64,000 nt of DNA, taken from positions 16,458-80,457 of the IMG/VR virus record IMGVR_UViG_3300042879_003566; one strand, given 5' to 3'. Source of the stretch: a virus. A program made the translations under genes and the position numbers. The stretch's first letter is position 1, and each line of letters starts with the position of its first letter. Below are positions 7,471-25,338 of the stretch, in pieces. The notes under the pieces were generated by a model that saw only the letters and a list, made by a program, of their open reading frames with translations, ran no database searches and was not told where the DNA came from.

Positions 7471-7473
7471 AAT

Positions 7474-10612: not shown

Positions 10613-10648
10613 AGCACTCCTGTGTTGTTACCTTTATTGTATAGGCTT

Positions 10649-10897: not shown

Positions 10898-11606
10898 CGG
10901 CGCATCGATCTTCAGGAAGAAGGTCTCTTGGATACTCGGATGACGCCAGGTCCACTGAGGACTTTCCATAGATTCGAGAGGAGCGGATGGAATATTCTTG
11001 AAAGACCTTGACTCCTTGGGGGAGTAGCTGACCAGCTTGGTGGGCACTGCGGATTGCATCAAGGTTTGGGAGAACGTTTGTTTTATTAGAAGGTTCAATC
11101 CTTTCAGAAAGGATTTCTCCTGACATTGAACGTAACACAGTTCGCTTGGTTGTGGTGACTTCTTCTTCAACACAAAAGTGCTGTCGTTCTTCAGAAGACC
11201 AAAACTCCGGATCCGACTTGATTTCAACAGTTAAGTCTTTCTTTTTAACAAGAGTGAACTGATAGTTGCGGCCAGTAATTTTATTGGCATCAACCGGTAG
11301 CACCCGCTTCAAATAATTGAGCAGGTGCTTGAGGCTATCGACTTGGGACTCGTGATGCTTTTGGGCCTTTAGGATAAGACCCTTTTCTTTTTTGATCCGC
11401 TCAACAGCATCCTCATGGGCTGCCATGGCGTAGTAGATACGATCAATCTTTTCAGACCGTAGGGTAATACAAGCTTCCAGCTCTGCTCGCGCCAAGTCTT
11501 GGGACTCAGGAGTGAGGAGAGGAAGAGAGCGTTCCAGGGCACCATAGTGCTCGTATAGCTGGATGACATTCAGCTCTTTGAGCTTAGTGTGAGTGATTTG
11601 AGCCAT
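10887..11606 (-). CDS. siphovirus Gp157-like protein
   Basis: Helical N-terminus, KID.I...ERIKKEK...LKHLL.YL, C-terminal GVKV.QEYSIR. Confidence 0.6.
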   Translation of the reverse strand: MAQITHTKLKELNVIQLYEHYGALERSLPLLTPESQDLARAELEACITLRSEKIDRIYYAMAAHEDAVERIKKEKGLILKAQKHHESQVDSLKHLLNYLKRVLPVDANKITGRNYQFTLVKKKDLTVEIKSDPEFWSSEERQHFCVEEEVTTTKRTVLRSMSGEILSERIEPSNKTNVLPNLDAIRSAHQAGQLLPQGVKVFQEYSIRSSRIYGKSSVDLASSEYPRDLLPEDRCADEC

Positions 11607-11654
11607 GGCTTGATTTGTGTTGGAATGGTGTTACGGCTAATCAGGCAATAACCA

Positions 11655-11774
11655 TCAGCCGTTTTGAAAGTGTGATTGAAGTTTATTGAGTGTGTAGGCC
11701 AGCAGCGCTGCGGCTGCTGTCCAAAGAAGATCACGGACAACAGAAGTAATGCTTGAAAGAATGAAGTCGAACAT
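11655..11774 (-). CDS. 39-aa putative membrane peptide (not in ORF track)
   Basis: MFDFILSSITSVVRDLLWTAAAALLAYTLNKLQSHFQNG, preceded by a CA-rich leader and pseudoknot copy 1. Confidence 0.5.
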   Translation of the reverse strand: MFDFILSSITSVVRDLLWTAAAALLAYTLNKLQSHFQNG

Positions 11775-11794
11775 TGGATGGTGTGGTTAAAAAG

Positions 11795-11823
11795 CTGGTC
11801 AGTTTAACGTCATGACCAGGACG
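11795..11823 (-). ncRNA. repeated pseudoknot motif A, copy 1
   Basis: CGTC-CT-GGTC-AT-GACG-TTAAACT-GACC(AG). Confidence 0.7.
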
Positions 11824-11828
11824 GAGAC

Positions 11829-12245
11829 TCAAGCTGACGTTTCCGCCGAGTCGTCGAAGCAGTCTACCAGGTCTGTCAAGCCAACCTTGGTGACTGTTAC
11901 AAGGTTTGCAATGTAATCCGTCAATGCTTCAACCTTGGCATTGACAGAGTCCAGTTTTTCGGACAGTTCTTCGCGACTTGGTGAAATAAAGTCAAGGGTT
12001 TCTTCTTTGAAGGTGTCAGGGTTTTCTTTGCGTTGAATCTTGCGGGCGTCATCGTTTGTTGAATAGAGAACATCGGTAAACAAATCGTATTTAGTTTTTT
12101 CAGAAGGCTTGGCATAACCAAAGTCCTTTGCACATTTTTCAATGGCTTTGTCAAATTCAAAATACAAGTACAGCAAATGTGCTGCTTCTTGCAAGAACAG
12201 ATCCTTGTAGCGGTCAAACTCAAGGCCGTAAGTATCAAGTGACAT
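11829..12245 (-). CDS. hypothetical protein
   Basis: ORF 11829..12311; likely start MSLDTYG. Confidence 0.6.
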   Translation of the reverse strand: MSLDTYGLEFDRYKDLFLQEAAHLLYLYFEFDKAIEKCAKDFGYAKPSEKTKYDLFTDVLYSTNDDARKIQRKENPDTFKEETLDFISPSREELSEKLDSVNAKVEALTDYIANLVTVTKVGLTDLVDCFDDSAETSA

Positions 12246-12435
12246 GGGGAAAATCGACATCAATGGCGGTTTGTAAAGCTTTAAGGACAAAGTCCTGCTG
12301 GTGTTGTTCACCCCAGCTGGTCCATTCTGCTAGATCTGGGTCGGTATCGTCCCACTCAATGTGGATACAACACCCACCATCGTCTTCTTCAATCACCTCT
12401 AGCTGCAGCTTCGTTATCCAAGTGTTGTTCGACAT
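12235..12435 (-). CDS. small acidic hypothetical protein
   Basis: Part of the overlapping - strand gene chain. Confidence 0.55.
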   Translation of the reverse strand: MSNNTWITKLQLEVIEEDDGGCCIHIEWDDTDPDLAEWTSWGEQHQQDFVLKALQTAIDVDFPHVT

Positions 12436-12616
12436 GGGCAATCAACATGTTTTGAACATAGTCTTCGTGATGCATCCTAAGGTCTGCAGCCATCTTTACA
12501 AGTTCCCAGTGAGTGTCTTCTGGAACTTCAAGGTCATAGCGTTGGTAGTTGCTCATGAAATTAACAGTTGGTTGCGTTGCAAGTTGACGAGCGTATTCAA
12601 GGATGTCGTCAGTCAT
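12389..12616 (-). CDS. hypothetical protein
   Basis: ATGA overlap with the upstream gene. Confidence 0.55.
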   Translation of the reverse strand: MTDDILEYARQLATQPTVNFMSNYQRYDLEVPEDTHWELVKMAADLRMHHEDYVQNMLIAHVEQHLDNEAAARGD

Positions 12617-13548
12617 TTTTTGGTTGTAGTTTTGAGTTGAGGCAAAGCAACACCTGGGAAAGGCACGTAGCCTGACTCCAGCATGTTATCGAACAAAGTC
12701 CAGGCATCATGCTGGGTGAACACCTCCTTTGGTTTGTAGGTACGCCAGTGGGTTAGCGGTGCTTGTGCACCATGTTTGGTGTGCAGCAACAAGAAACGTC
12801 CATCCGTAATGGCATCCGACGGTGGTGCATACCACCAAGCCACACACTTATCAGGTGCGTAGGCAGGACAGGCATTGCGTACTTCAGTACGTTTGCACAG
12901 AAGATCTCTGTATTTGTTGAACCAAGTCAGGTGGATGCACCAAGGTTTGAACCCTTGGATCTCTTGTTGGAATTGCGATAGATGATTGAGCTGACGCTGA
13001 AAGGACCCACACGAGCAGCTAGGTTCGCCAAAGCTGGACCGTTGTTCATTCTCATCCAGTTCAGAGTCCATGTCAACGAGCCGATCCTCAAGCCGAAACC
13101 CGTCCGGTGCAACCAGATATCCAAGGTCGGTCTGGTCAGACTGAAGTACGGCTTTGAGCTGGTCTTGGTCTGAAAGGCGAATGAACTTGTCTGCCCACTG
13201 GGCTTGGAGACGAGCGTTAACGGTGTGCGATCCAAGGGCATGAACGTAGCTCCATCCTTTGAACATAACGTAGGCATTCTGATTCCAGATACTTGGACCC
13301 CTGTAATTGGGGCCAAGGTAAGCAAAGAAATCTTTTAGCCTGTTGGTAAAAGAAACAAATGCTTCTTTTATTGGTTGGCGTGGATAATCAACTTTGCTAC
13401 CGTCACGGTAAAGCACACGGCAAAGGTCATCAAAAAGATAGATGCCCGTGACATCGGCTTCATTGAAGTCCGGGAACGCACGGCGTATATTCGTCCGTGT
13501 GTAGATGAACGTTTGAGCTTCATTAAGTTCAAGCAGAGTTTCAGTCAT
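12613..13548 (-). CDS. SWIM-type zinc-finger protein
   Basis: CSCGSF...PWCIHL (CxC...CxH); ACACCACACC leader. Confidence 0.65.
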   Translation of the reverse strand: MTETLLELNEAQTFIYTRTNIRRAFPDFNEADVTGIYLFDDLCRVLYRDGSKVDYPRQPIKEAFVSFTNRLKDFFAYLGPNYRGPSIWNQNAYVMFKGWSYVHALGSHTVNARLQAQWADKFIRLSDQDQLKAVLQSDQTDLGYLVAPDGFRLEDRLVDMDSELDENEQRSSFGEPSCSCGSFQRQLNHLSQFQQEIQGFKPWCIHLTWFNKYRDLLCKRTEVRNACPAYAPDKCVAWWYAPPSDAITDGRFLLLHTKHGAQAPLTHWRTYKPKEVFTQHDAWTLFDNMLESGYVPFPGVALPQLKTTTKK

Positions 13549-13574
13549 AGCAGATTGGTGTGGTGTGAAATGTG

Positions 13575-13778
13575 TCAGATGAACAGATCGGGATCTTGTC
13601 CTGACCGCTGGAGCTTAACACGTTCTTGTTCCTTGAGGTAGGCGGATTTACCAACCTTGTAGGTTGCGTAGCCAAGTGCTGCCCAGGCAACGGGATTACC
13701 AAGGACAAGAAGTGCACCGGCTCCAATGGCGCCAAATGTTCCTGCAGTTTTAAGAACTGCTTTGTGCTCTGGTTTCAT
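13575..13778 (-). CDS. small membrane protein
   Basis: Hydrophobic Gly/Ala segment FGAIGAGALLVLGNPVAWAALGY. Confidence 0.6.
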   Translation of the reverse strand: MKPEHKAVLKTAGTFGAIGAGALLVLGNPVAWAALGYATYKVGKSAYLKEQERVKLQRSGQDPDLFI

Positions 13779-13859
13779 GAGGTGATTGTTAATACATTTG
13801 GAAAAAGATAAACGGTGTTTACTATAGAAGTAAAATTAAGTAACAATTGAATACATTCC

Positions 13860-14123
13860 ATGGATCAAATTAAGTATGTGTCGCTGTCTCAATTCCAAAT
13901 CGAACCATCGTTAGACGATAAGTTTTGGGAAGAGAAGCTAAAGCGCACAATCCAGGAATGTAATTCGGTTAGTGCATTGAAAGAAATAGCGACCCTCTTA
14001 GCGAGGATCGCTACCCAAAGACAAGGTGTAATAAGGGGATTGGTACAAGATATGTTCATCTTTAATAACGTTGCCGTTAATCAAGATGATCTTGCCAACC
14101 CCCAGGTTGAATCAGATCAGTGA
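13860..14123 (+). CDS. possible NblA-like helical hairpin protein
   Basis: Lone + strand gene with its own TAAAAT; SLDDKF..EKLKRTIQ...LKE....L pattern loosely resembles NblA. Confidence 0.4.
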   Translation: MDQIKYVSLSQFQIEPSLDDKFWEEKLKRTIQECNSVSALKEIATLLARIATQRQGVIRGLVQDMFIFNNVAVNQDDLANPQVESDQ

Positions 14124-15212
14124 ATCGTCTTCACCGGTCATTGGATCACGGGCAGGCAAAGCCTTGACTTCGACATCCGTGGTGCGGGACACAGGAAGAA
14201 TCTCAACACCAGCCTTGATTCCATAGGCACCGCCAAGCTTTTCAGCATCTTGCCGTGCGTGTTGGTTGATGTAATCGCTGAACATTTCCTGGAACTTCCA
14301 GGTGGATTCACGATCTTCATCAGGAATCGAGAGGCGATTCAATGATTCGATTGCAGTTTCCTGATCGGAATAATCAGGGATGTCAAACGATTCAATAGCG
14401 CAGATCTCAACGTTGTTGGCACCGCGCATCTCATTGGCAAGCACCGGAGCAAAGACGGTGGTTGCATAGAACTTCTCGTTGAATGCAAGAGGAACTTCAG
14501 AGTCCAGTGCTTTGCTCAGACACTTGGACATTTCCTTCTCATACATCTTGATCTTCTCAGACACGTCGGTGCCATTAAGACCCTTCAAAGTCAAGACCAT
14601 GGGGATCTTGTGGGCACGCTTGTTGTCTTCCGTCAGGATGTAAACAAGGTACTTGGTACGCACACTGTACTTGCGCTTGTACATCTCACCTTTGCTATTG
14701 GCAAGGTCGGATGCAATCTTATCGGCTTCAAACAATTCTTTAACGTCTGGATCCTCAAAGGTTCCAATCGTCTGCCTCATCCCAGTTGTTTCCTCAACCA
14801 TAAGGGGAGAACGTAGAAGGACTTGAAGTCGAGGCTCAGTAAAATTGAGTCCTTCTTCCACTGAAGTATTGGGAGCCATACCAAAAGTTTGCTTGTAGTT
14901 CCAGATAAGTGAACCTTTAGCAAATTGATCTTCAGTGGCGTTCCATCCACAAGTGTCAAGGTCTGACTTCCGCACGAACCAACCTCGTGTCTTGGATTTG
15001 TTGAGAGGTTGGATGGTGACGAGATTCTGGTATCCGGACACAAACTTTTTATCTTGGAAAAGTTTGAAGGAATCCAGGCCACGGGTGGCAAGAGCAGAGG
15101 TTTTCTTCATGGTCAAAGTCGTAGTAGGTTTCTTGGGAGAAAAGGAATCAACTTTGGATTGGAGTTCATCCATCCAAGCTTCATCCATCATGTCAACAGG
15201 AGTCGTTGTCAT
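14112..15212 (-). CDS. replication-module hypothetical protein (possible ssDNA-binding or annealing protein)
   Basis: About 366 aa, directly downstream of ssb, acidic C-terminus (GEDDSLI). Confidence 0.6.
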   Translation of the reverse strand: MTTTPVDMMDEAWMDELQSKVDSFSPKKPTTTLTMKKTSALATRGLDSFKLFQDKKFVSGYQNLVTIQPLNKSKTRGWFVRKSDLDTCGWNATEDQFAKGSLIWNYKQTFGMAPNTSVEEGLNFTEPRLQVLLRSPLMVEETTGMRQTIGTFEDPDVKELFEADKIASDLANSKGEMYKRKYSVRTKYLVYILTEDNKRAHKIPMVLTLKGLNGTDVSEKIKMYEKEMSKCLSKALDSEVPLAFNEKFYATTVFAPVLANEMRGANNVEICAIESFDIPDYSDQETAIESLNRLSIPDEDRESTWKFQEMFSDYINQHARQDAEKLGGAYGIKAGVEILPVSRTTDVEVKALPARDPMTGEDDSLI

Positions 15213-15234
15213 GGTTGGTTCGTAGTAGAACAAC

Positions 15235-15261
15235 AGATGCTTTTAACGTCATCCCAGGACG
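15235..15261 (-). ncRNA. repeated pseudoknot motif A, copy 2
   Basis: CGTC-CT-GGGAT-GACG-TTAAAAG-CATCT. Confidence 0.6.
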
Positions 15262-15311
15262 GGCGCCTAGTCTAGGAGTGACCAGGCGCTATGGAACATC
15301 AGCGTTTGTTA

Positions 15312-16127
15312 TCAAAACGGTGCGTTGTCGTCATCTTTGGATGGGCTGCCGTATTGACCAGGGAGATCAGGCAGTCCGCTTTCACCATGACCCCAAGGAT
15401 CAGGTTGTTCATCCATAGTGCGACCACCCCACAGTGAACCAACATTCCCTTCGGATGCAACAGTTGTTTGGGGCTGGATCGGAGCGGAACCATCGACTGC
15501 CTTGGGAGACAGCGTCATCTTCTTAAGTTCGATCTTAGTTTGTATTTTCTTTTCCCTTGAATCTTTATCGATCCAGGAATCAGTAACCAGTCGACCCTTA
15601 ATTGTTAAGCCCGTTCCTTTGCGGGTGAAGTTACACAGAAGTTCTGCGTAGTTAGGCTTATCTTCTGCGTTGTTAATTGCGTAGAAGTTAAAGAGATCAG
15701 ATTGATTGCGACCAGTATTAACCGCAAGGGTTTGGTTGCAGATCATCAAACCACTTGGTGTGGTTTTAAAAGCACGTTCATCTTCGTGGTTGACATCTTT
15801 GACGCAACGTCCACTAAGGATGACAGTGTTAAGAATCGGAAATGTCTCTGCATTAACCATGCCAATGACACCACCATGCAAAGAGAGTTGCCTGGTATCT
15901 AAGTCATAGCGGAGCGTGGAATCATGCAGGTAAATTCCCATGTTCTTTTTCATGCGAGCAAAACGTTCAGCCGTCTTGCCGTAGATGTTAAGTTCGATGG
16001 GAGTGTCTGCTTTCTTAGCGCCGACAGCCGGTAGGCTAATCATGCAGCGCATTGCAGTTGAGTTGGCGCCTGTAAAAACTTCCCGAGGATCTTCAAGAAG
16101 TTGAGCGCAACCAGCAAAGAAATTCAT
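15312..16127 (-). CDS. ssb: single-stranded DNA-binding protein with two tandem OB folds
   Basis: Second half LNTVILSGR..KD...AE....RKG..LTIKGRL.TDSW.DKD; first half is a degenerate copy (YGKTAE...KK...IYL...LRY); tail DDDNAPF. Confidence 0.85.
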   Translation of the reverse strand: MNFFAGCAQLLEDPREVFTGANSTAMRCMISLPAVGAKKADTPIELNIYGKTAERFARMKKNMGIYLHDSTLRYDLDTRQLSLHGGVIGMVNAETFPILNTVILSGRCVKDVNHEDERAFKTTPSGLMICNQTLAVNTGRNQSDLFNFYAINNAEDKPNYAELLCNFTRKGTGLTIKGRLVTDSWIDKDSREKKIQTKIELKKMTLSPKAVDGSAPIQPQTTVASEGNVGSLWGGRTMDEQPDPWGHGESGLPDLPGQYGSPSKDDDNAPF

Positions 16128-16147
16128 TGCAAGAGAAGTAGGGTGGA

Positions 16148-16174
16148 AGGCAGTTTAACGTCATACCTGGGACG
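16148..16174 (-). ncRNA. repeated pseudoknot motif A, copy 3
   Basis: CGTC-CC-AGGT-AT-GACG-TTAAACT-GCCT. Confidence 0.7.
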
Positions 16175-16185
16175 GGTCCATAGAT

Positions 16186-18009
16186 TTAGTGGGTATCAGA
16201 CCAAGTCTTACCAACTCGGGAGTCACCTTCAATCAAGCATTGAAAGTTAAAAAACTCCTGGGCCTGGGGGAATGAAAGCATAGCTTGCTCCCTGATTTTT
16301 TCTGTGTGATCTGGATGGCATGCAATTTGGATTTCATCATGCACCATCAACAGCTGCTCCCAGTCTTGACCGTAGACCAGACCAAGGTTTTGTTCAATGT
16401 TTTGTTGCGTAAAAACAACAACTTGTTTCATAAGGATTGCACCTGCGGATTGCAGGAGAACATTCAATCCTTTGAACGCAGAGCGACAATGCAGAACGCG
16501 ACGATCAAGACCACGCAAATAACCCCGGGATCCAATAGTTTCATCAATCTGTTGTTTAAGTTTCTTTAATGCAGGTACACCTTTCATGAATGAATTGATA
16601 GCATTACTTCCCAGTTGCCGGAGAACTAATTCATCCTTTTCATCAGGGTCGATAATGGTACCAGCCTTGGCAGCACCACATCCGTAAAGCATTCCATACA
16701 ATAACCGCTTACTAATATCACGAGTTGCTACGCCAAACTGCTCTTGGTTATACGTATGGATATCAATTTCCGGGTTAACAACTAGAGAAGCATACTCTCC
16801 GTTGTCCCAAAGGGCCAAGTATCCAGCAAGGCAGCGCAGCTCAAGTGCTTTAGCGTCAATACCAATGAGGTCCCACCCGTAAGGAGCATGGAATAAATTG
16901 CGACATTCCTTTCCATATGGGGAGTAAGACGCAGGCACTTGGCCCATGTTTGGATTACGGTGTGCGCACCGCCCAGTGATGCAACCGTTAGTAATAAGGT
17001 CGCCGTGGATACAGCCAGATTCGTTGTTGAACAACTTGATCCAAGCATTGTTGCCATCTGCAATTTGACCAAGACGTTTTTTGACCAGCATGTATTCTGC
17101 CAATGGCTTGGCTTCTGGGAAAGGCAATGTCTCTAATACCTCATCATTAAGGATTGGATTTCCTTTCTCAGTAGTTTTTTCTGGTCGCCATCCGTACTTC
17201 TGCGCAAGTCGATTAGCAATCTGGTCACGAGATCCAGGATTGAATTCTTCAATGCAGACTTTTTCAAATGGGACACCTTTGACATAGCCACGGGTTTTGT
17301 TGTTGACCTTGGGAGTAAACCAAGAGCGATGTTCAATAGGCGGGAAGACTTTCTTTAACTCGTCTTCAAGTTCTTTTTGTCTTGTGCGTAGTACATCCAC
17401 AAGATCAAAAGCTGCATCAAGATCAAAAGGAACACCTGATCTAACTTGTCGATCAATTGCAAGCGCAAAGTCGTGCTCCAGTTTGAGCGCCGCCTCTGGG
17501 TAGTGTTGCTTGCAGATGTGTTCCCAAAGTTTCTTAGTAACTTCCACGTCTTGGATGCAGTACTTAAGCATCTCTTCTGAATAGACGGAGAAGTCCTTGA
17601 AGTTGATCTTATGATCGGCCAAGCGCCATCCCCACGCCTTAAGCGATGCGGATCCACGTAGGTTCGGTGAAACCTGCGAATATTGTTCGATGTCAAGGTC
17701 ATAGAGAAGTTCTTTGGGCCAGATCAATCGTGTGCAAATGAGTGTGTCAATGATGCGTGATTTGCATGTGAATGAATGTAGTTTTTGTAGGACTGGAATG
17801 TCATAGAAAATAATATTGTGCCCGATCAAAACATCAGCGGTTGCCAGATGAGCAAGAGCATCAGCAATGTGATCAGGCCCATAAGTAAAAGTTTGTTTGC
17901 GTCCAATGTCATAGAGAACAATGCAGTGGATAACTGTGACAGCATCATAAAGATTGTCAGACTCAAGGTCAAAGACCAACCAGGTTTCACTTACGGAATC
18001 TGGCTTCAT
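16186..18009 (-). CDS. polA: DNA polymerase family A (T7-like; 3'-5' exonuclease plus polymerase)
   Basis: ExoI FDLESD, ExoII GHNIIFYD, ExoIII YCIQDV; motif A DAKALELR; motif B KRLLYGMLYG; motif C VHDE. Confidence 0.96.
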   Translation of the reverse strand: MKPDSVSETWLVFDLESDNLYDAVTVIHCIVLYDIGRKQTFTYGPDHIADALAHLATADVLIGHNIIFYDIPVLQKLHSFTCKSRIIDTLICTRLIWPKELLYDLDIEQYSQVSPNLRGSASLKAWGWRLADHKINFKDFSVYSEEMLKYCIQDVEVTKKLWEHICKQHYPEAALKLEHDFALAIDRQVRSGVPFDLDAAFDLVDVLRTRQKELEDELKKVFPPIEHRSWFTPKVNNKTRGYVKGVPFEKVCIEEFNPGSRDQIANRLAQKYGWRPEKTTEKGNPILNDEVLETLPFPEAKPLAEYMLVKKRLGQIADGNNAWIKLFNNESGCIHGDLITNGCITGRCAHRNPNMGQVPASYSPYGKECRNLFHAPYGWDLIGIDAKALELRCLAGYLALWDNGEYASLVVNPEIDIHTYNQEQFGVATRDISKRLLYGMLYGCGAAKAGTIIDPDEKDELVLRQLGSNAINSFMKGVPALKKLKQQIDETIGSRGYLRGLDRRVLHCRSAFKGLNVLLQSAGAILMKQVVVFTQQNIEQNLGLVYGQDWEQLLMVHDEIQIACHPDHTEKIREQAMLSFPQAQEFFNFQCLIEGDSRVGKTWSDTH

Positions 18010-18220
18010 CTTGAATTGAGAGGTCTTGACCAGAGAGCTTGTCATTGTTCTTGTTAATCCACGCCAAGATTTGCTGCGCACCCGCACGGTACGGATGAGA
18101 GAAAATCTTGTTGAGAGCTACGTCAGAGTCTAACGGAATCAACAGAAATTGATTGGATTTATTACACGCAGTAATGGCGTGTGGCACTCCATTTTTCCAG
18201 GTTGCAATGACGTAGCTCAC
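17987..18220 (-). CDS. hypothetical protein
   Basis: 77-aa ORF overlapping the polA start. Confidence 0.55.
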   Translation of the reverse strand: MSYVIATWKNGVPHAITACNKSNQFLLIPLDSDVALNKIFSHPYRAGAQQILAWINKNNDKLSGQDLSIQDEARFRK

Positions 18221-18283
18221 GGTGAACGTTGAAAGAACGCTCAGATAATATCCGATTTATTGAGCAATGCAAGATGTGCGGAA

Positions 18284-19045
18284 TTACTTTCGATTTGATT
18301 TGCCGTATCCCACAAAGTCACCATCTTTCTTGCGTTGAGACAACGCCTTGCTGGCTTCTGTACCAGCGCGTTGACTGCCATGTACCAGCAGTGCAAACGG
18401 CTTGTCGCCCAAGCAATGGCTATCGTCGTGATCGATTTCCAATCCCAGCTCAGTTGCCTGCTGTTCTGTGTAGACCACATAGGCAATGCGCTTGAACACC
18501 TTGGGGTGTTTGGGAATTAGGTAATCGAGCGTACCACCATGGGACGCAGTGAGATAGAAGTTAGGTGGAATGATGTCGGCAAGGTTAAGCCACATGCCCA
18601 ACGACTTGGTGTAGGCATAGAAGGTTTGGTTGGGCCGCTCGGTTGCAGCCATGAACCAAGCCTTCATGTAGTTCTCTGTCCAGAAATCACCAGACTCATG
18701 AACCCGCACCAATTGTTTGGGCGGCATCATGGTCAAGGACAGATCAATGAGGTCACGCAGCAGTGTGACTTGGTTGCCATTGGAATACAACGTTTCACGC
18801 AGCAAATCCCAGTTGTGCCAGCGTGCTTCCCTGACGTTGGGCCGCACTTCTGACATAGCTGCAAAGCAGCGGAACTCATCTGCTGTGGTACCAGTGGTCT
18901 GGGGCAGATCAGTGATGGTACCTGTGGCACGGTCAGCAAAGGTCTTGCAAACACCAGCGTGCGGGCAGGAGTAACCCGCTGGAAGCGAGAAGATCAAACG
19001 GTTCTTGAGCTTACCGTTACCGGTGGAAAACTTGAGGAGTTTCAT
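18284..19045 (-). CDS. GP88-like protein
   Basis: GNGKL...FSLPAGYSCP.AG.C...CFA...VRVHESGDF...FYAYTK; start MKLLKF follows the CACCACACC leader. Confidence 0.75.
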   Translation of the reverse strand: MKLLKFSTGNGKLKNRLIFSLPAGYSCPHAGVCKTFADRATGTITDLPQTTGTTADEFRCFAAMSEVRPNVREARWHNWDLLRETLYSNGNQVTLLRDLIDLSLTMMPPKQLVRVHESGDFWTENYMKAWFMAATERPNQTFYAYTKSLGMWLNLADIIPPNFYLTASHGGTLDYLIPKHPKVFKRIAYVVYTEQQATELGLEIDHDDSHCLGDKPFALLVHGSQRAGTEASKALSQRKKDGDFVGYGKSNRK

Positions 19046-19079
19046 GGTGTGGTGTGGATAAAAGATAAGCAAAGCTTAT

Positions 19080-19106
19080 GGATGAGTTTAAGGACATCCC
19101 AGGTCC
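19080..19106 (-). ncRNA. repeated pseudoknot motif A, copy 4
   Basis: GGAC-CT-GGGAT-GTCC-TTAAACT-CATCC; stem 1 covaries relative to the other copies. Confidence 0.65.
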
Positions 19107-19161
19107 GTTGATGTGTTACATGATGAACGACATCATATACAACAACGATCATATACTTTCC

Positions 19162-19175
19162 GTATCAATAGATAC
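19162..19175 (+). promoter_or_regulatory. NtcA-type box GTA-N8-TAC
   Basis: GTATCAATAGATAC lies between a TATACT -10-like hexamer (19152-19157) and the ATG at 19184. Confidence 0.55.
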
Positions 19176-19183
19176 AGAATCTT

Positions 19184-19336
19184 ATGGAACTAACGTATCG
19201 CGGCTGCAAGTATGACAAAGGGCAACAAGCCAAGAAGGATAGGGACTGGTGGAACCTGACCCATCGCCCTTGGCTGCGCCTGACATACCGTAATATTGGA
19301 TACCTTCCTTACCTGATCGGAGGTCAAATCAAATGA
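19184..19336 (+). CDS. DUF4278-like small protein (LTYRG repeats; not in ORF track)
   Basis: MELTYRGCKY...LRLTYRNIGY, 50 aa. Confidence 0.7.
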   Translation: MELTYRGCKYDKGQQAKKDRDWWNLTHRPWLRLTYRNIGYLPYLIGGQIK

Positions 19337-19449
19337 ACAAGGCACTGATTGTTTACTTAATTGATCAAAAGAAAAAGACGGCACGTAAGGATATTGAATC
19401 CAAACATGCCATCAAAGAATTAAAAAAACAACCGGCCTCGACTTTTTAA
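19333..19449 (+). CDS. 38-aa basic peptide (not in ORF track)
   Basis: MNKALIVYLIDQKKKTARKD...; ATGA overlap with the upstream gene and a terminator after it. Confidence 0.55.
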   Translation: MNKALIVYLIDQKKKTARKDIESKHAIKELKKQPASTF

Positions 19450-19462
19450 TTCCCGTTCATCA

Positions 19463-19488
19463 GCCTCCGGATCAAACGGAGGTTTTTT
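19463..19488 (+). terminator. intrinsic terminator
   Basis: cctccg-gatcaaa-cggagg followed by tttttt. Confidence 0.7.
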
Positions 19489-20119
19489 ATTGGAAGACAG
19501 CTTCTCCGATAACAGGGAATTGGTCACAGAAGATTTGCTGGATGTCTCGGGCGATTTGTTGGTGTTCGAGTTGGGTTCCATTGGCAGTGCGCAGTTGAAG
19601 GTAGTGTATCCACGAACGGAGTGTACCGTTCATGTATAGACGTGTCTGTGTCGAAAGCGGCAAAACCGCACGAGCACATTCCTTGGCGACACCGTTACTG
19701 ATCATCTCACGGTACAGATGTTCAGCGTCTTCATATAGATGACTGATGCGACGGTAGTAACCAGAGATTAAATCAGAATCCAAATCATCAATACTGTTTT
19801 GACGATTCTTCTGATCTTGACGACGCAGGTGAGGGATCACAGCGGAGCCAAGTTCACTGGCATCTGCATAGCGTTGACTGAATTCCTGGAAACTAAATGA
19901 ACGATGGCGCAAGATCTGTGGTGCGATTGCACGTGTCGTTTCAATCTCAACGCACATGTTTGCCATCTCATACGGCGACCAATGGTTGTTGTTAATTAGA
20001 TAACGCAGCAACCGTGGTGCAGTGTCCATGTTGTCTTGATTGCGCGGTGCAGAAACACGCGCCATCTTGACGATCATTTCTTCTGCGTTGGGCGTTGCCC
20101 ATACCAATTTGACAGGCAT
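19487..20119 (-). CDS. thyX: FAD-dependent thymidylate synthase
   Basis: QILRHRSFSFQEFSQRY, H.SPYE, AKECAR.VLP, LRSWIHY..LR...TQLEH. Confidence 0.97.
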   Translation of the reverse strand: MPVKLVWATPNAEEMIVKMARVSAPRNQDNMDTAPRLLRYLINNNHWSPYEMANMCVEIETTRAIAPQILRHRSFSFQEFSQRYADASELGSAVIPHLRRQDQKNRQNSIDDLDSDLISGYYRRISHLYEDAEHLYREMISNGVAKECARAVLPLSTQTRLYMNGTLRSWIHYLQLRTANGTQLEHQQIARDIQQIFCDQFPVIGEAVFQ

Positions 20120-20121
20120 CT

Positions 20122-20421
20122 TTATTCTCCAGGTACCACGGTATTTTTGCTGAGTTGATCGAGATGATCAATAGGACAAATACGCATTTGCGCGTGCTCC
20201 GTTGGAGAAGCAAGGTGGTCCCATTGGACGACAAGGACTTTCATCTTGGTACCACGGGAGTCACGCTTTTCCTTGAAGTCAATGACCGTACCGTAGCGTT
20301 GTGTCCTGTGTTGTGCGATGCGTTCACGCACATCTTGTTTGTTGGTGAAGATCCCATGGGTCTTGGGACGTTCAGCAACGCGATCACCAATGGTGTATTT
20401 GAACTGTGCTTTGTTTGCCAT
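20122..20421 (-). CDS. hypothetical protein
   Basis: Likely start MANKAQF, coupled to the upstream stop. Confidence 0.6.
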   Translation of the reverse strand: MANKAQFKYTIGDRVAERPKTHGIFTNKQDVRERIAQHRTQRYGTVIDFKEKRDSRGTKMKVLVVQWDHLASPTEHAQMRICPIDHLDQLSKNTVVPGE

Positions 20422-20765
20422 CAGATGTGAGTCCAAGCTTTTCGGTTAACAATGCGTGAGATGTACGATACGCTGATGCCGTATTTTGCAGAGATTGCTT
20501 GATGGTTAAAACCCCAGGCATGCATACGGCGAATATGCAGTACGTTCTTTTCAGTCAGTACAGCATTACCGTTGTCAGCTCCACGGGCAACGTTACCAGG
20601 CCTTGGTTTACCCTTAGGAGGACCCGGCTTCAAGACTTCGTATCGCTCAATGGTGCGGTACTTAGCATCACATGAAAGACATCGGCAATAGCGTTTAGTA
20701 AAACCAGGGAAGTGATTGGTGCAGGTGACGCGTGTGTACTTGCTTGAGCAAGACGGGCAGTTCAT
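20421..20765 (-). CDS. NrdR-like Zn-ribbon fused to a C-terminal HTH
   Basis: MNCPSC...TRV...RYCRCLSC..KYRTIE plus NAVLTE..V..IR...ISAKYGIS...ISRIVNRKAW.HI. Confidence 0.65.
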   Translation of the reverse strand: MNCPSCSSKYTRVTCTNHFPGFTKRYCRCLSCDAKYRTIERYEVLKPGPPKGKPRPGNVARGADNGNAVLTEKNVLHIRRMHAWGFNHQAISAKYGISVSYISRIVNRKAWTHI

Positions 20766-21124
20766 TGGGGATCAAGTGAACAGGGTGCGTTATCAATAGA
20801 TTGATTACGTATTTCTGCATACTTATCTAACTGCAAAGAATCCAATAAATACAGAGTATTTTCTGGGCCAATGATCTTGAATGCATCAACAATTAGATCA
20901 TGCTTACGCAAAGGGATGCGGTAGTAATCCAAAAGGATTTCTTCTGCACGATCAAAGTCATCGATGGTTCCAGTCAACCGTTCAACAACAGTGCTTGGCA
21001 TGTTGTCAACAATGTTACCAACAATGGCATCGATGACTGCTGACCAAGTCTCGGATGGAATCATCGCGATGACTTTATCAACCAAGTCAAGATCAATGGG
21101 ATCGTTTTGAGACTGACTGATCAT
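20762..21124 (-). CDS. hypothetical protein
   Basis: 120-aa ORF with ATGA overlap. Confidence 0.6.
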   Translation of the reverse strand: MISQSQNDPIDLDLVDKVIAMIPSETWSAVIDAIVGNIVDNMPSTVVERLTGTIDDFDRAEEILLDYYRIPLRKHDLIVDAFKIIGPENTLYLLDSLQLDKYAEIRNQSIDNAPCSLDPQ

Positions 21125-21128
21125 AAGG

Positions 21129-21153
21129 AAAAAGCCCCCGGTTTCCCAGGGGC
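21129..21153 (-). terminator. intrinsic terminator
   Basis: Minus strand: GCCCC(C)-TGGGAAACC-GGGGGC followed by TTTTT. Confidence 0.7.
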
Positions 21154-21174
21154 CGTCTGCACTTCTCGTGTAGT

Positions 21175-21537
21175 TTAGACCGCTTGAACCTGGGTGTCCA
21201 CCACTGGTTCCATCACGCCAGCTTCTTTGAGTTTATCGAGCATGGCGCACATGATTGTGGCGTGCTGATGGGTTTGTTCCATGAAGTGTTTGGCACGATC
21301 AGCGGTAATGGTGTGAGTACAACCATTGGGTTCGGTGTACTTCCAACTGCCATCCGGTTGAGGATCGCCTTGGAGCGCAAGGCGTTCAGAGTTGTGAACG
21401 TAGCGCAGTTCCAAGTTGTGGTAATCCTTGAGACCGTCTGGTGCAGTCCAAGTTGCACCGAGGTTGTAGCGATTGTCTTCGTCAGAAAACGCATGGAATT
21501 CAGGGATAACTGATTTGAAAGCAGCAAGAATTTGCAT
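21175..21537 (-). CDS. hypothetical protein
   Basis: 120-aa ORF with CAACACC leader. Confidence 0.65.
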   Translation of the reverse strand: MQILAAFKSVIPEFHAFSDEDNRYNLGATWTAPDGLKDYHNLELRYVHNSERLALQGDPQPDGSWKYTEPNGCTHTITADRAKHFMEQTHQHATIMCAMLDKLKEAGVMEPVVDTQVQAV

Positions 21538-21555
21538 GGTGTTGAGTAAGGGAAT

Positions 21556-21631
21556 TGGTACCCGAGGTGAGATTCGAACTCACGCTGGAGCGATTTTAAG
21601 TCGCTTGCCTCTTCCGCTGGGCTACTCGGGC
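21556..21631 (-). tRNA. trnL: tRNA-Leu(UAA) with short variable loop; CCA encoded
   Basis: GCCCGAG/CTCGGGT-A-CCA; anticodon arm AGCGA-CTTAAAA-TCGCT; variable region CCAGC; T arm GTGAG-TTCGAAT-CTCAC. Confidence 0.9.
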
Positions 21632-21843
21632 GCACTTGGACTTACGCTTACATCAATGGATGCATGCTGCCAAGTGTGGTCATGGGGCAATGGCTCAGTG
21701 CCATATTCCCATGTGTCGTAGTCTTCTTCATTACGTGGATCGTCTTCGATCAGTACGTAATGCGGAGAGTTGTCATGAATGAAATCTCCGATGTTTGCCA
21801 TAGCCATAGCCAGGAGTTGATCATCGGTGTAGTCGTGTTCCAT
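21622..21843 (-). CDS. small acidic hypothetical protein
   Basis: 73-aa ORF; its 3' end overlaps motif B and the tRNA 5' end. Confidence 0.5.
   Translation of the reverse strand: MEHDYTDDQLLAMAMANIGDFIHDNSPHYVLIEDDPRNEEDYDTWEYGTEPLPHDHTWQHASIDVSVSPSAPE
21633..21676 (-). ncRNA. hairpin motif B (GGCA...GUAAGUCC), copy abutting tRNA-Leu
   Basis: CACTTGGCA-GC...GC-GTAAGT-CCAAGTG. Confidence 0.6.
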
Positions 21844-21898
21844 GGTGAAGGACCAGCCCTAGTATCGAGGCTAAGGCTGGTCAATTTGGCTTCGGCCT

Positions 21899-23605
21899 TT
21901 AAGAGGCTAGCTGTTCATTGCGGGTTTGCAATGCCTCATGGAACCCTTCGGTGTATTGGTCTCGCTGATCAGGCGTCAGGTTTTGATTAGATAAACCTTT
22001 GATTTGATCAACGGACATCATGCCACCGTCAACCTTGAGTTGAATGGTGAACCTGGGTTTACCTTCTACCATACAAAGCACAATGAAGTGCTTCTTCTTA
22101 CGAACACCTTCAGCGTAACCAGAGGCAGAGCCAACGCAATTGCGTACGGCTTGACCCCACATGGCGAGCTGATGCGTGTCGTGTGGCTGGAAGAACGACC
22201 AAGTTTCACCATCAACAGATACTTTGATGGGTTCAGGGAATAAATCCTGCGGTAGCTTTTCATTTGGATTTTGAATCTTCCATGACTCTGCCTGGACATG
22301 GTCATGGAATTCATTGATGCGCCAACGTTTGGGAGGATTTAGATCCTTGTGCTCAAGCACGCGGTTAAGCATGTTGATTGTGTCTGACCATTCGTAGAAT
22401 CCATAAACGTGTAGACCAAGGTCACGTTCCATGGTGACGTTAGAGCCATTAGCACGTACACGTTGCTGCTCTTCTTCATAGTATTTGGCAAAGATGCCAA
22501 AGAAAGAAGCAACAGGCATGTGTTGACGCAACCAATCAATAGTCTTGTCTTGCACGGCGTACGAACGAATGCGTATGCCTAGCAATTCTTGAATGTGGTT
22601 TTGATAATAATCAATGGGACAATCAGGCCAGATGCCATGAACATAGCTAATGGAATCAACTAGTTTCTTAGCTTGATTAAAAGGTTGTTTGATGTTGACT
22701 TGTAGTTTGTTGTTCTTATCTTCATAGACAGCAATAGATTCATCTAGTTTTTGCTGGACCCACTTACGGAAGAATGGTGTATTAAAGATGTGTTTGACAT
22801 TGCGTAGTGGCAGCCAATCAAGGTATGCAGGCGTTCTTAATTCAGTAAGTGAATAGAAGTTATCAACAGTTAGCTGCCAAGTTGATTGCTCTTCTTGACT
22901 TACAAAGACAGGAGGAATCTCAAGAGCTTGGGCAATGCCAGCACATTGAAGGCGGCTAAAAAGGAAACGGCTATCATCCCAGGTGGGAATTGATTCTTGC
23001 AAGGCTTTACTGAATTCTTCAACAGCCTTGGCAATGTTCCGTCCCTTTTGGGTATAACTACCAAGATAACGAGCACGCCATTCACGATCTTCTTTGCCAT
23101 CAATGATGTCTTGACGAGTTACAAGACGACGGTCAATGAAGAATGTTGAGCGGCCAATCTCAATCTTGTTGTAGTTATCAATGTTGTTGATGATATCGCG
23201 TGGAATTGTCTTACGTGCTGATGCAGTGTCACGGAAGACACGTGCATAGCCATAGACATACTTGTCTTCTTGGCCAGCTGGCGGCAGCCATCCGGCGTAC
23301 CAACATTGTTCGAAGTGATAAAGGATTGCGCGTGTCTGGAGACGGGCCTGCGGAGTAGCAACATCCACAGGCTTGGTAAATGAGTGGTGACGATCTGGCG
23401 CAAGCTGCGTGTTAATCGAATCAATTGCATCTTGCTGCAGTGATTCACGCACCACGTCATAAGGAATGACATGCGGGATGTTGCCAAGGGGATACTTGGC
23501 TTTCTTGGCAGGAGATGATTGCTTTTGTTGGCGAACCAAAGCTTTGAGCTTGGGATCGTAGGCAATCAACTCGGTCTGCAAGTTTTGAGGAAGTTGGAAT
23601 TGCAT
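21899..23605 (-). CDS. PcfJ-like domain protein
   Basis: C-terminal HD......L...GQAVRNCVG...Y.......TIQL......QIKG..N. Confidence 0.75.
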   Translation of the reverse strand: MQFQLPQNLQTELIAYDPKLKALVRQQKQSSPAKKAKYPLGNIPHVIPYDVVRESLQQDAIDSINTQLAPDRHHSFTKPVDVATPQARLQTRAILYHFEQCWYAGWLPPAGQEDKYVYGYARVFRDTASARKTIPRDIINNIDNYNKIEIGRSTFFIDRRLVTRQDIIDGKEDREWRARYLGSYTQKGRNIAKAVEEFSKALQESIPTWDDSRFLFSRLQCAGIAQALEIPPVFVSQEEQSTWQLTVDNFYSLTELRTPAYLDWLPLRNVKHIFNTPFFRKWVQQKLDESIAVYEDKNNKLQVNIKQPFNQAKKLVDSISYVHGIWPDCPIDYYQNHIQELLGIRIRSYAVQDKTIDWLRQHMPVASFFGIFAKYYEEEQQRVRANGSNVTMERDLGLHVYGFYEWSDTINMLNRVLEHKDLNPPKRWRINEFHDHVQAESWKIQNPNEKLPQDLFPEPIKVSVDGETWSFFQPHDTHQLAMWGQAVRNCVGSASGYAEGVRKKKHFIVLCMVEGKPRFTIQLKVDGGMMSVDQIKGLSNQNLTPDQRDQYTEGFHEALQTRNEQLAS

Positions 23606-23633
23606 GGTGAGTTCAGAGTAAGTTCGTAGTGTG

Positions 23634-23661
23634 TGAGCAGTTTAATGTCATGCTCAGGACA
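23634..23661 (-). ncRNA. repeated pseudoknot motif A, copy 5
   Basis: TGTC-CT-GAGC-AT-GACA-TTAAACT-GCTC. Confidence 0.7.
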
Positions 23662-23666
23662 GGGGA

Positions 23667-23924
23667 TCAGTCTAGATCGTAATCGGAGGTGTCGACGAGT
23701 TGCCAGTGAAGATCGAGCTGATCAAGATAGCAGCAGAAGCCATCTTCATCAGTAGGGATTTGTTGTTCCTCATCCAGCTCAAAGCTTGCTGTGCAAAGAG
23801 CTGGAGCCCATTCTTCAGGTTCGAAATATGTTGCCCGATAGAGCAAACGCATTTCGTCAACCACTGCTGTAACTGTGACATTGGTACCTTCGATGATGGT
23901 GTCTTCAATAGCAAGGACAGACAT
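23667..23924 (-). CDS. acidic hypothetical protein
   Basis: 85-aa ORF. Confidence 0.6.
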   Translation of the reverse strand: MSVLAIEDTIIEGTNVTVTAVVDEMRLLYRATYFEPEEWAPALCTASFELDEEQQIPTDEDGFCCYLDQLDLHWQLVDTSDYDLD

Positions 23925-23927
23925 GAG

Positions 23928-24125
23928 TCAGACCTGAATGAATTGCTTGGGTTTCATGAAGTCAGATGTTGGTCCATACTTCTCGATAAGATCAGGGAAT
24001 GCGTCGAGCAAACGCTGACGATTCACTGGATCTGCAACGCGCAGTGCTTGTGCAATCGATGAAACAAATGAACCACCATGTGATTGCATGAGGCAAATCA
24101 TGGCGGTCAGCTGAGCTGAATTCAT
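23928..24125 (-). CDS. hypothetical protein
   Basis: GGSFV..IA.A...AD..N..RL..AFP motif; likely start MNSAQL. Confidence 0.6.
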   Translation of the reverse strand: MNSAQLTAMICLMQSHGGSFVSSIAQALRVADPVNRQRLLDAFPDLIEKYGPTSDFMKPKQFIQV

Positions 24126-24147
24126 GTGTTGAATTGCAATGGAATGT

Positions 24148-24174
24148 AGGCAGTTTAACGTCATACCCAGGACG
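24148..24174 (-). ncRNA. repeated pseudoknot motif A, copy 6
   Basis: CGTC-CT-GGGT-AT-GACG-TTAAACT-GCCT. Confidence 0.7.
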
Positions 24175-24179
24175 TATCT

Positions 24180-24377
24180 TTAGAATAATTTAATGTTTCG
24201 TTTGCTCAATCCTGTGCCAGGAATTGAGAACGATCCAAGCAGTCCAGACGGACGTGCGTTGAGTGTGAATTGGATGGGGCCAAGTCGTATCGATTTGGTG
24301 AACGACTTGATGCCCCGTTCCGTGATGTTGACTCCGGCAATAGTTTTGTCGAAGTTAAAGGCTGAGCGTTCAGTCAT
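24180..24377 (-). CDS. DUF4236-like small protein
   Basis: KSIRLGP...LN....G...SIPGTGLS. Confidence 0.55.
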   Translation of the reverse strand: MTERSAFNFDKTIAGVNITERGIKSFTKSIRLGPIQFTLNARPSGLLGSFSIPGTGLSKRNIKLF

Positions 24378-24666: not shown

Positions 24667-24733
24667 TAGTTGTAGATCATGTCGAGGGACAAAATGATTG
24701 CACTAAGGAATAACATGGAGCAGAGAAGGATCA

Positions 24734-24940: not shown

Positions 24941-25054
24941 TGGAATGAAGTGGAATGATTGATGGAGTGTAGCAGGGAATAGGGGGAGTAAACATTAGTT
25001 TATCTAATAGAATTAATGGTTCCCCCCTGGTACTCCCTGCGGGGTTGTAGGGGT

Positions 25055-25312: not shown

Positions 25313-25338
25313 GGTGTGGTGTGTAGGTTGAATGGGAT

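Follow-up and report, generated by a model that had tools for sequence, protein, structure and literature searches.

What does a short RNA element do when it recurs at one gene junction after another of the same phage transcript? The question is raised by a lake cyanophage whose early/replication region carries six copies of such an element. The window (the whole stretch of DNA analyzed, 64,000 nucleotides (nt) in length) comprises bases 16458–80457 of the 80,457-bp IMG/VR virus record IMGVR_UViG_3300042879_003566, rated complete. The phage is S-EIVl-like, its closest named relative being Synechococcus phage S-EIVl from a high-Arctic lake, with 73–81% nucleotide identity across the replication module. 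All six copies lie within the long minus-strand early/replication arm, where many small open reading frames (ORFs) are also found. The element is an H-type RNA pseudoknot. Comparison of its letters with published motifs suggests that it is best explained as a bacteriophage variant of the coremin class of translocation-resistant RNAs, with identical core letters but lacking one defining feature, the second hairpin.

Structure and covariation of the pseudoknot

The preliminary description of this DNA had reported six minus-strand copies. Each is present, with limits refined by at most 1 nt:

11796–11823, minus strand: pseudoknot copy 1, CGUC-C-UGGUCA-U-GACG-UUAAAC-UGACCA (45.6 bits)
15235–15261, minus strand: pseudoknot copy 2, 7-nt-loop subclass, CGUC-CUGGGAU-GACG-UUAAAAGC-AUCU (15.1 bits, E 0.43)
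16147–16174, minus strand: pseudoknot copy 3, CGUC-C-CAGGUA-U-GACG-UUAAAC-UGCCUU (47.8 bits)
19080–19106, minus strand: pseudoknot copy 4, 7-nt-loop subclass with swapped stem 1, GGAC-CUGGGAU-GUCC-UUAAACUC-AUCC
23634–23661, minus strand: pseudoknot copy 5, UGUC-C-UGAGCA-U-GACA-UUAAAC-UGCUCA (49.6 bits)
24147–24174, minus strand: pseudoknot copy 6, CGUC-C-UGGGUA-U-GACG-UUAAAC-UGCCUA (48.0 bits)

The element comprises a 4-bp stem 1 (NGUC/GACN'), a loop 1 with an invariant C and a stem 2 of 4–6 bp. Copies 1, 3, 5, and 6 are ungapped 28-mers of the form S1(4)-C-S2(6)-U-S1'(4)-UUAAAC-S2'(6); loop 1 (C) and the junction (U) are single nucleotides, and loop 3 (UUAAAC) has 6 nt. This is textbook H-type geometry, in which one base spans the deep groove of a 6-bp stem and six A-rich bases span the shallow groove of a 4-bp G-C-rich stem. 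In copy 1, stem 1 joins 11820–11823 with 11808–11811 and stem 2 joins 11813–11818 with 11796–11801. Stem 2 of copy 3 has 5 bp, including one U.G pair; that of copy 5 has 6 bp, all Watson-Crick, and that of copy 6 has 6 bp, including two wobble pairs. Stem 2 had been written as 4 bp; the pairing itself stands, while its length had to be revised, since it can extend to 5–6 bp in four copies.

Copies 2 and 4 share the 7-nt loop CUGGGAU, and their stem 2 may be GGAU/AUCY, i.e., a possible 4-bp GGAU/AUCU in copy 2 and either GGAU/AUCC or UGGG/CUCA in copy 4. No covariation was observed in this subclass, where the sequence hardly varies in our sample and the register of stem 2 is ambiguous, so that its stem 2 is neither supported nor refuted. 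In a search with a degenerate core pattern, seven matches with at most three mismatches were found versus 1.6 expected, a number reached in none of 100 shuffles. A structure-aware scan of the window and the first 16 kb, which together make up the whole 80,457-bp genome, revealed no seventh copy.

Covariation was assessed in relatives. Eighteen related IMG/VR loci were fetched via the SSB protein, and a covariance model was built with stem 2 only, stem 1 being excluded. It produced 73 matches in this cyanophage set, all in the gene sense; 61 were distinct and came from the window, S-EIVl and 16 IMG/VR relatives. Among them 93.1% of cells pair, compared to 81.6% in shuffles (none of 500 shuffles reached 93.1%) and 10–62% in controls with slid partners. 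Seven of the 10 pairs change on both sides, with both-side changes in 11–21 sequences for each inner pair of stem 2. Four inner stem-2 pairs covary strongly; for example, one is AU in 34 sequences, GC in 21 and GU in 4, and another GC in 29, AU in 15 and GU in 4. Stem 1, although outside the model, pairs in 100% of cells: its bottom pair is CG (49), UA (6), GC (2), UG (2) or AU (1), and the loop-closing pair is C-G in 60 of 60 scorable copies.

A second set of 47 distinct copies, gathered from bacterial genome contigs and cultured phages and containing no cyanophages, gave 93.4% pairing. The proposed covariation of both stems is thus borne out in two independently gathered sets. Loci outside the SSB set were mostly retrieved with exact patterns, in which the conserved letters are prescribed for one copy per locus. 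Altogether 152 distinct cores contain eight types of stem 1, including U.G; CGUC/GACG is present in most copies, and the paired variants include UGUC/GACA, AGUC/GACU, GGUC/GACC, and GGAC/GUCC. The genome of S-EIVl has its own copies at equivalent junctions (six in the first scan and a seventh found by the model), and among these all four Watson-Crick combinations are seen at the bottom pair of stem 1. In SSB-anchored relatives a copy is located just ahead of the SSB start in all but two cases. Length variants with a 9-nt loop and a 7-bp stem 2 were found in IMG/VR by a pattern scan.

The wobble pairs reveal the strand. Among 163 cores chosen by conserved letters only there are 130 G.U and 35 A.C combinations, a ratio of 3.7 to 1 on the sense strand; therefore the folded strand is the transcribed sense strand. 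This agrees with the earlier argument that wobbles restricted to the minus strand point to an RNA structure rather than a DNA operator.

Likeness to the coremin motif

The Rfam comparison proposed in the preliminary description was performed with Rfam 15, and no family matches at the motif: only a tRNA matches in 10000–27000 at E up to 10, a 141-nt slice gives nothing even at E 10, and in eight bacterial loci nothing matches at the motif. The element had been described as belonging to no named family, which holds for Rfam but not beyond it, since its core is the named coremin motif. A full-text literature search for the string GACGUUAAAC led to the coremin papers. The published coremin motif is GUCCGAAGACGUUAAACUAC (PMC10520033) and the phage consensus is (C)GUCC-N6-U-GACGUUAAACUG; the letters common to the phage knot and the coremin core are GUCC...GACGUUAAACU.

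Coremin consists of a 4-bp hairpin CGUC/GACG (hairpin 1, hp1) with a YGAD loop, a conserved spacer and a second hairpin (hp2) (PMC6546385); loops of 5–8 nt are also allowed, with YGNNAD for those of six. It is found in beny-, cucumo- and many other eukaryotic RNA viruses (PMC6546385, PMC10520033). At the base of its hairpin 1 the exoribonuclease Xrn1 is stalled; the element is also a barrier to scanning ribosomes and a driver of -1 frameshifting (PMC10520033, PMC6546385, PMC10321173). Frameshift-positive coremin variants were picked out in an Escherichia coli screen, and for Watson-Crick coremin a 3-bp pseudoknot between the loop and the spacer has experimental support (PMC10321173). In the coremin spacer UUAAACUAC, A15–A17, C18, U19, and A20 are essential, while U13–U14 are tolerant. 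The two elements compare as follows:

Loop base 5: C in 142 of 143 phage copies; coremin functions only with C or U
Loop-closing pair: always C-G in the phage element; C-G in coremin, with U-A tolerated and G-C not
First two spacer bases: free in the phage element; in coremin UU to AA is tolerated, and U14A and U-to-C are natural
Spacer AAA, C, U: fixed in the phage element; essential in coremin

The AAA shows no variation across the seed alignments and the aligned full-length matches, and the following C and U are present in 136 and 135 of 143 copies, respectively. In the 8-nt loop the next-to-last base is A in 141 of 143 copies, and the last is U (124), A (9), C (9) or G (1). The phage element thus has the hp1 stem (C)GUC/GAC(G) with the loop-closing C-G pair and the coremin spacer save for position 20, which is G in 124 and A in 14 of the 143 copies and pairs within stem 2. 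Canonical coremin loops were also found in the fetched phage and bacterial DNA, namely CGAA (loci L214 and L223), CGAAAU (twice in L190) and CGCAAU (L105), each followed by a spacer beginning UUAAACU. We assign the phage element to coremin as a probable variant because the core letters, the conservation profile and the canonical loops match.

Compared with the coremin exoribonuclease-resistant RNA (xrRNA-C), the phage knot has the same 4-bp CGUC/GACG stem, C as the first loop base, A-D as the last loop bases and the spacer UUAAACU. The two elements also agree in where they vary (at the first two spacer bases and at the bottom stem pair) and in where they do not (at AAA, C, U and the loop-closing C-G); loops of 4–8 nt are allowed, and both elements occur between genes and in tandem. 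In contrast to xrRNA-C, the phage knot occurs in dsDNA phages of bacteria, where Xrn1 does not exist; its loop is 8 nt long, with six bases pairing just past UUAAAC, and position 20 is G rather than A.

The Watson-Crick form of coremin (xrRNA-WCC), represented by Sanxia picorna-like virus 5 and selected variants (PMC10321173), is closer in topology. Both it and the phage knot form an antiparallel pseudoknot by pairing of the hairpin loop with the spacer, and in both loop 1 is a single nucleotide. Further points of likeness are adenosines proposed in the minor groove of stem 1 and frameshifting stimulated without hp2 (PMC10321173). Stem 2 of xrRNA-WCC has 3 bp starting from spacer base 18, whereas that of the phage knot has 4–6 bp and starts one base later. 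Loop 1 is G in xrRNA-WCC but C in the phage knot, as in BNYVV. For Xrn1 resistance, xrRNA-WCC still needs hp2, a hairpin that the phage knot lacks.

Two features weigh against the assignment. The second base of the 8-nt loop is U or C, not the G of the coremin YG(NN)AD consensus, and no conserved second hairpin after the spacer was found either in the window copies or in the relatives. Past stem 2 the leaders are unfolded and G-poor in four window copies; weak hairpins are present only behind the two 7-nt-loop copies, and relatives do not conserve them. The 6-bp stem 2 lies at the site where hp2 of coremin would start, and it may or may not take over the role of hp2, which is strictly required for the Xrn1 resistance of coremin (PMC10321173).

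Coremin has so far been described only in eukaryotic RNA viruses, as an Xrn1 block; here its core is present in dsDNA phages. No paper linking coremin or exoribonuclease-resistant RNAs with phages was found in the literature searched. No three-dimensional structure of coremin has been solved, and its pseudoknot is described as “yet unelucidated.” The phage element supplies about 150 natural variants, which define a topology in which the hairpin loop visibly pairs with bases past UUAAAC.

Side by side occurrence of the two forms was observed on the minus strand of L190, where two repeats, near 726 and 1794, each comprise a pseudoknot-type copy, 8 nt and a canonical coremin hairpin with the loop CGAAAU and a spacer beginning UUAAACU, followed by tRNA T-arm sequence (GGUUCGAAUCC).

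Placement, distribution, and proposed function

The position of the copies between genes, ahead of start codons, had been noted before and is upheld here, the named downstream genes being confirmed by Pfam: the copies precede the genes for SSB, a DUF5895 protein, a GP88-like protein and a PcfJ-like protein and two small ORFs. The identified genes of this region are:

15212–14112, minus strand: DUF5895 protein (Pfam)
16127–15312, minus strand: SSB (Pfam PF00436)
18087–16186, minus strand: family-A DNA polymerase, PolA (Pfam)
19045–18284, minus strand: GP88-like protein (Pfam PF17338)
20119–19487, minus strand: ThyX (Pfam)
23605–21899, minus strand: PcfJ-like protein (Pfam)

The upstream stop codon ends 5 nt ahead of stem 1 in copies 1 (stop at 11829–11831), 5 (23667–23669) and 6 (24180–24182). 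Copy 3 is located 11 nt past the PolA stop (16186–16188). The measured distances fall within the 5–12 nt that the preliminary description had given for four copies. Downstream, copy 1 is followed by a small ORF (11774–11655), and a short ORF starting with MF(D/E) is present at the same junction in relatives too. Leaders of 19, 28, and 21 nt separate copies 3, 5, and 6 from the SSB gene, the PcfJ-like gene and a small ORF (24125–23928), respectively. Copy 2 lies 50 nt past the SSB stop, behind a 10-bp hairpin, and has a 25-nt leader to the DUF5895 gene. Copy 4 is directly followed by a small hairpin and has a 34-nt leader to the GP88-like gene.

The distance to the nearest upstream stop closing an open frame of at least 40 codons was determined for 212 distinct clean copies, mostly from S-EIVl-like contigs. 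It is exactly 5 nt in 59 copies, 6 nt in 17, 7 nt in 9 and 8 nt in 7, and it is shorter than 5 nt in only 6. Counted as raw stop triplets, 84 of 179 are at exactly 5 nt, with 4–23 at other offsets. The letters of the 5-nt spacer differ among orthologues; it is the distance that is kept, not the sequence. The helicase of the ribosome first meets structure at about +11 to +13 from the first base of the P site, and with a stop codon in the A site a 5-nt spacer places stem 1 at +12, the closest that a fold can sit without being unwound. The same spacing is used by frameshift pseudoknots. On the other side, the first AUG of a long ORF is located 19–22 nt past stem 2 in 78 of the 212 copies, with smaller groups at 26–28 and 34 nt. 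The leaders contain 6% G, compared to 21.6% for the arm, and lack a Shine-Dalgarno sequence.

The spacing recalls luteovirus-type -1 frameshift pseudoknots such as that of BWYV (28 nt), which are similar in size, in the short G-C-rich stem 1 and A-rich loop 3, and in lying 5 nt from the ribosomal A-site codon. The phage knot differs from them in having no conserved slippery heptamer, no frame preference of the leader and no fusion protein. A read-through or -1 frameshift signal was accordingly rejected: there is no conserved upstream heptamer, and leader lengths of 19, 20, 21, and 22 nt are about equally common, with no 3-nt preference. As read from the sequence, the +1 frame holds UGA and UAA within the knot.

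Outside the cyanophages, an exact-pattern scan of one genome per prokaryotic species found 37 loci, of which fewer than 10 were estimated to be expected by chance. They come from Enterococcus, Ruminococcus, Finegoldia, Saccharibacteria, Geobacter, Bacteroidetes and others, and stem 2 covaries freely among them. No match was found among 5,426 complete E. coli genomes. In a phage collection 137 records match, including 83 of Staphylococcus and 27 of Vibrio, with a few of Actinobacteria, cyanobacteria, and alpha-proteobacteria. The same knot is thus present in phages of Firmicutes, Actinobacteria, alpha-proteobacteria and Vibrio, often at a long distance from any start codon or immediately ahead of tRNA genes; other genes that follow it include scaffold genes and an ATPase gene. 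In these other phages the distance from knot to start is 40 to more than 100 nt, and ordinary Shine-Dalgarno sequences are present. In Gram-positive prophages a copy is located between the minor head gene and the scaffold gene, often right behind a terminator-like hairpin. RNase J scored above the curated cut-off in four of five knot-carrying host genomes, and the hosts of the phage records other than those of Staphylococcus and Vibrio presumably have RNase J for the most part.

Two copies adjoin tRNA genes closely. In Arthrobacter phage Molivia (NC_042001.1; L247 1195–1312) the SSB stop is followed by 6 nt, the pseudoknot, 2 nt and tRNA-Gly, and in Nostoc phage NMeng1 (L246 1201–1307) a tRNA-like gene starts 5 nt past the knot.

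These data are consistent with a directional roadblock that would shield the downstream cistron from 5'-to-3' decay, a function to which we give about an even chance. The knot would be transcribed as part of a polycistronic early/replication message and would form a mechanical block, like coremin, to machines moving 5' to 3' on RNA. Decay would enter upstream, either at the operon's 5' end or where an endonuclease has cut, and would be halted at the base of stem 1, whether its agent is a 5'-to-3' exonuclease (in cyanobacteria, RNase J) or RNase E that scans inward from the 5' end. The cistron following the knot (SSB, DUF5895, GP88-like, PcfJ-like or a small ORF) would then outlive the rest of the message, with the knot as its 5' cap. 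If the knot resists the ribosome helicase, selection would keep it out of reading frames. The 5-nt spacer would bring it as near to a terminating ribosome as a fold can be (+12 relative to the P site when the stop occupies the A site), so that it would stay folded with little bare RNA exposed.

Flaviviral xrRNA stops pure bacterial RNase J1 (PMC5760640), and RNase J is present in cyanobacteria (PMC12464536). Among the three functions originally put forward, a 5'-exonuclease block gains most, since the core has the letters of the Xrn1-resistant coremin RNA, while a protein operator loses ground. Both SSB here and the head scaffold elsewhere are gene products needed in bulk. The knot resembles bacterial 5' stabilizers, i.e., the 5' hairpin of ompA and the stalled-ribosome blocks against RNase J1 of ermC and cryIIIA (STAB-SD), in being a 5'-proximal obstacle that would shield the downstream message from 5'-end-dependent decay. 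In contrast to these simple hairpins or bound ribosomes, each serving one gene, the phage knot is a sequence-conserved family found across phyla.

Several observations, besides the requirement of coremin for hp2, weigh against a roadblock. Pseudoknots of frameshift signals that are similar in size (BWYV, MMTV, SRV-1) fail to stall Xrn1 (PMC10321173), and therefore a small pseudoknot alone is insufficient. A Vibrio phage lineage has the knot, as does a Bacteroidetes metagenome-assembled genome (MAG) with no RNase J above the cut-off, so RNase J cannot be the only target; the target may be any 5'-to-3' translocating machine. A strict link to RNase J is borne out only in part, by the four of five hosts and the lack of matches in E. 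coli. In Molivia and NMeng1 the knot lies 2–5 nt before the tRNA gene, where RNase P would cut it off. The fixed 5-nt distance to the stop codon fits equally well a 3'-end element of the upstream cistron.

A broader claim, which we advance tentatively and with less than even confidence, is that these are the first natural prokaryotic exoribonuclease-resistant RNAs, coremin-fold roadblocks of phages of many phyla that would halt RNase J or, failing that, RNase E scanning and ribosomes. If so, they would let phages derive long-lived mRNAs of less than operon length, as well as tRNA precursors, from long transcripts. A single 15-letter core working alike in bacteria, plants and fungi would indicate a universal mechanical block without enzyme-specific contacts, and the covariation of the phage copies would supply the long-sought topology of the coremin pseudoknot. 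The knot points to a compact, protein-free way of setting different stabilities for genes such as SSB and scaffold within one transcript. Staphylococcus aureus phages of the B166/phi11 type, given 83 Staphylococcus phage records with the motif, offer a tractable test system, and a 28-nt module protecting bacterial mRNAs would, if the block is real, be a useful tool.

Another possibility, which we consider unlikely, is that the knot acts in translation initiation, either as a docking or standby site for the 30S subunit via protein S1 or as an operator for a repressor such as phage SSB, and so sets the translation of leaders without a Shine-Dalgarno sequence. The preferred distance of 19–22 nt to the AUG in this lineage, the G-poor leaders and the copy just before nearly every SSB start would suit this function. 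Many pseudoknots bind S1, and standby translation of tisB needs a 5' pseudoknot (PMC7708055). In phage T4, gp32 is bound by a pseudoknot located 67 nt ahead of its own gene, and it spreads along the unstructured leader (PMC3014915). Against this stand the distant starts with ordinary Shine-Dalgarno sequences in other phages, the several copies that precede tRNA genes rather than ORFs, and the other junctions of the arm, where the same type of leader is paired with quite different structures, including a tRNA. Near-identical sequence in phages of many phyla argues against a phage-specific protein partner, and a protein operator on the T4 gene 32 model, as suggested in the preliminary description, is contradicted by the presence of the same knot in such phages far from starts or before tRNAs. 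The T4 operator is likewise a phage H-type pseudoknot upstream of the SSB gene, followed by an unstructured leader into the ribosome-binding site, but it shows no sequence likeness to the present element and occurs as one gp32-bound copy for one gene (PMC3014915). A single SSB operator of this type was rejected, as five of the six copies here precede genes other than SSB.

A shade less likely still is a ribosome insulator, in which the knot would keep post-termination or read-through ribosomes from the next leader and thus uncouple neighboring cistrons. Coremin blocks scanning ribosomes and resists elongating ones (PMC10321173), and a spacing of exactly 5 nt between stop codon and knot is far commoner than any other, shorter ones being very rare. 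Many copies are, however, far from the upstream stop or directly behind a terminator-like hairpin, and some precede tRNAs. We know of no bacterial precedent for a pseudoknot ribosome insulator. This function overlaps the proposed roadblock, with which it is compatible and from which it is hard to separate.

A processing signal, i.e., a site for an endonuclease (RNase E, Y, P or III) or a tiny self-cleaving RNA that cuts the long transcript into units, appears improbable. The element shares the niche of phage ribozymes, with a RAGATH-1 hammerhead about 600 nt from the copy in L236; a tRNA occupies the equivalent place at another junction of the arm, and some copies adjoin tRNAs. At 28 nt, though, it is smaller than any known self-cleaving class, the 141-nt slice is blank in Rfam at E 10, and the coremin literature reports stalling, not cleavage. 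It may resemble the 5' part of the pistol ribozyme, in which a hairpin with a pseudoknot-forming loop precedes an A-rich linker. The pistol ribozyme was rejected in view of the absence of a model match and of P2/P3. Small riboswitches (preQ1-I, guanidine-III, SAM-II/V) are alike in topology but were also rejected: the downstream genes are not metabolic and no model matches.

A DNA-level signal (promoter, operator or single-strand initiation site) is highly improbable: the element does occur at cistron starts, overlaps a BPROM-predicted “promoter” in S. aureus phages B166 and B122 and in some copies follows a TAnnnT hexamer (TAGACT) overlapping the stop codon, but two interleaved helices covary around fixed loops, G.U outnumbers A.C 3.7 to 1 on the sense strand, all 73 model matches of the cyanophage set are in the gene sense, TAGACT is present in a minority of copies, the BPROM label is a program's guess, and no phage RNA polymerase is named by Pfam (ten ORFs tested) or in the S-EIVl annotation. 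Individual forms of such a signal were rejected as well. A sigma-70-type promoter would require common -35 and -10 hexamers at a constant spacing; no shared hexamers were seen by eye around the copies, and such a promoter would need no base pairing and would leave the covariation and the G.U bias unexplained. A -10 box overlapping the stop (TAGACT) is found in only a subset of junctions, partly with orthologous C-termini. An N4-type hairpin promoter or another promoter for a phage RNA polymerase lacks a named polymerase in the ten ORFs and the S-EIVl annotation and is at odds with the wobble bias on the sense strand. The integron core site GTTRRRY is matched by GTTAAAC, but there is no attC-like partner.

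Other structures of the arm and further loci

The other junctions of the arm follow the same plan of a structure, a CA-rich leader and an AUG, the structure being a plain hairpin, a hairpin of a second family (“motif B”) or a tRNA. The suggestion of a phage-wide code was therefore not sustained: the pseudoknot copies are confined to the early/replication arm, and its other junctions bear other structures. Motif B has a fixed internal loop GGCA / GUAAGUCC. Its hairpins share the slot of the pseudoknot, with a stop before and a CA-rich leader after, and one copy adjoins the tRNA. These and the other structures are located as follows:

28415–28447, minus strand: motif B hairpin
26225–26269, minus strand: motif B hairpin
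25339–25393, minus strand: motif B hairpin
21633–21676, minus strand: motif B hairpin
21559–21631, minus strand: tRNA gene (56.5 bits)
21125–21174, minus strand: G-C-rich hairpin with a U run, terminator-like
15262–15311, minus strand: 10-bp hairpin, GCGCCUGGUC ... GACUAGGCGC
7471–7532, minus strand: G-C-rich hairpin with a U run, terminator-like

The tRNA takes the slot held by structured modules at other junctions and has a G-poor leader and an AUG behind it. Both terminator-like hairpins are located inside the minus-strand gene array. The 10-bp hairpin lies between the SSB stop and copy 2, and its 3' half gives a TAGAC-UAG sequence that is also found ahead of other copies.

In the SSB protein (15312–16127, minus strand) about 98 residues precede the OB fold, PF00436 covering residues 99–205. 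Its C-terminus, DDDNAPF, resembles the C-terminal tip with which bacterial SSB recruits host proteins.

Among the further loci, Staphylococcus phage B166 (NC_028859.1; L243 1503–1530) has its copy between the minor head and scaffold genes, where it overlaps the BPROM “promoter” feature. The L236 contig, labeled Eubacteriales, carries the RAGATH-1 hammerhead at 4534–4620 on the plus strand (68.4 bits, above the gathering score), about 600 nt downstream of the pseudoknot copy at 3913. Arrays of the knot are present in L214 (a Selenomonadaceae MAG, six copies in 4 kb) and L224 (a Bacilli MAG, four copies in 2 kb); in both the copies are located between small ORFs without a Pfam family, and in L224 the distances to the upstream stop are 11–22 nt.

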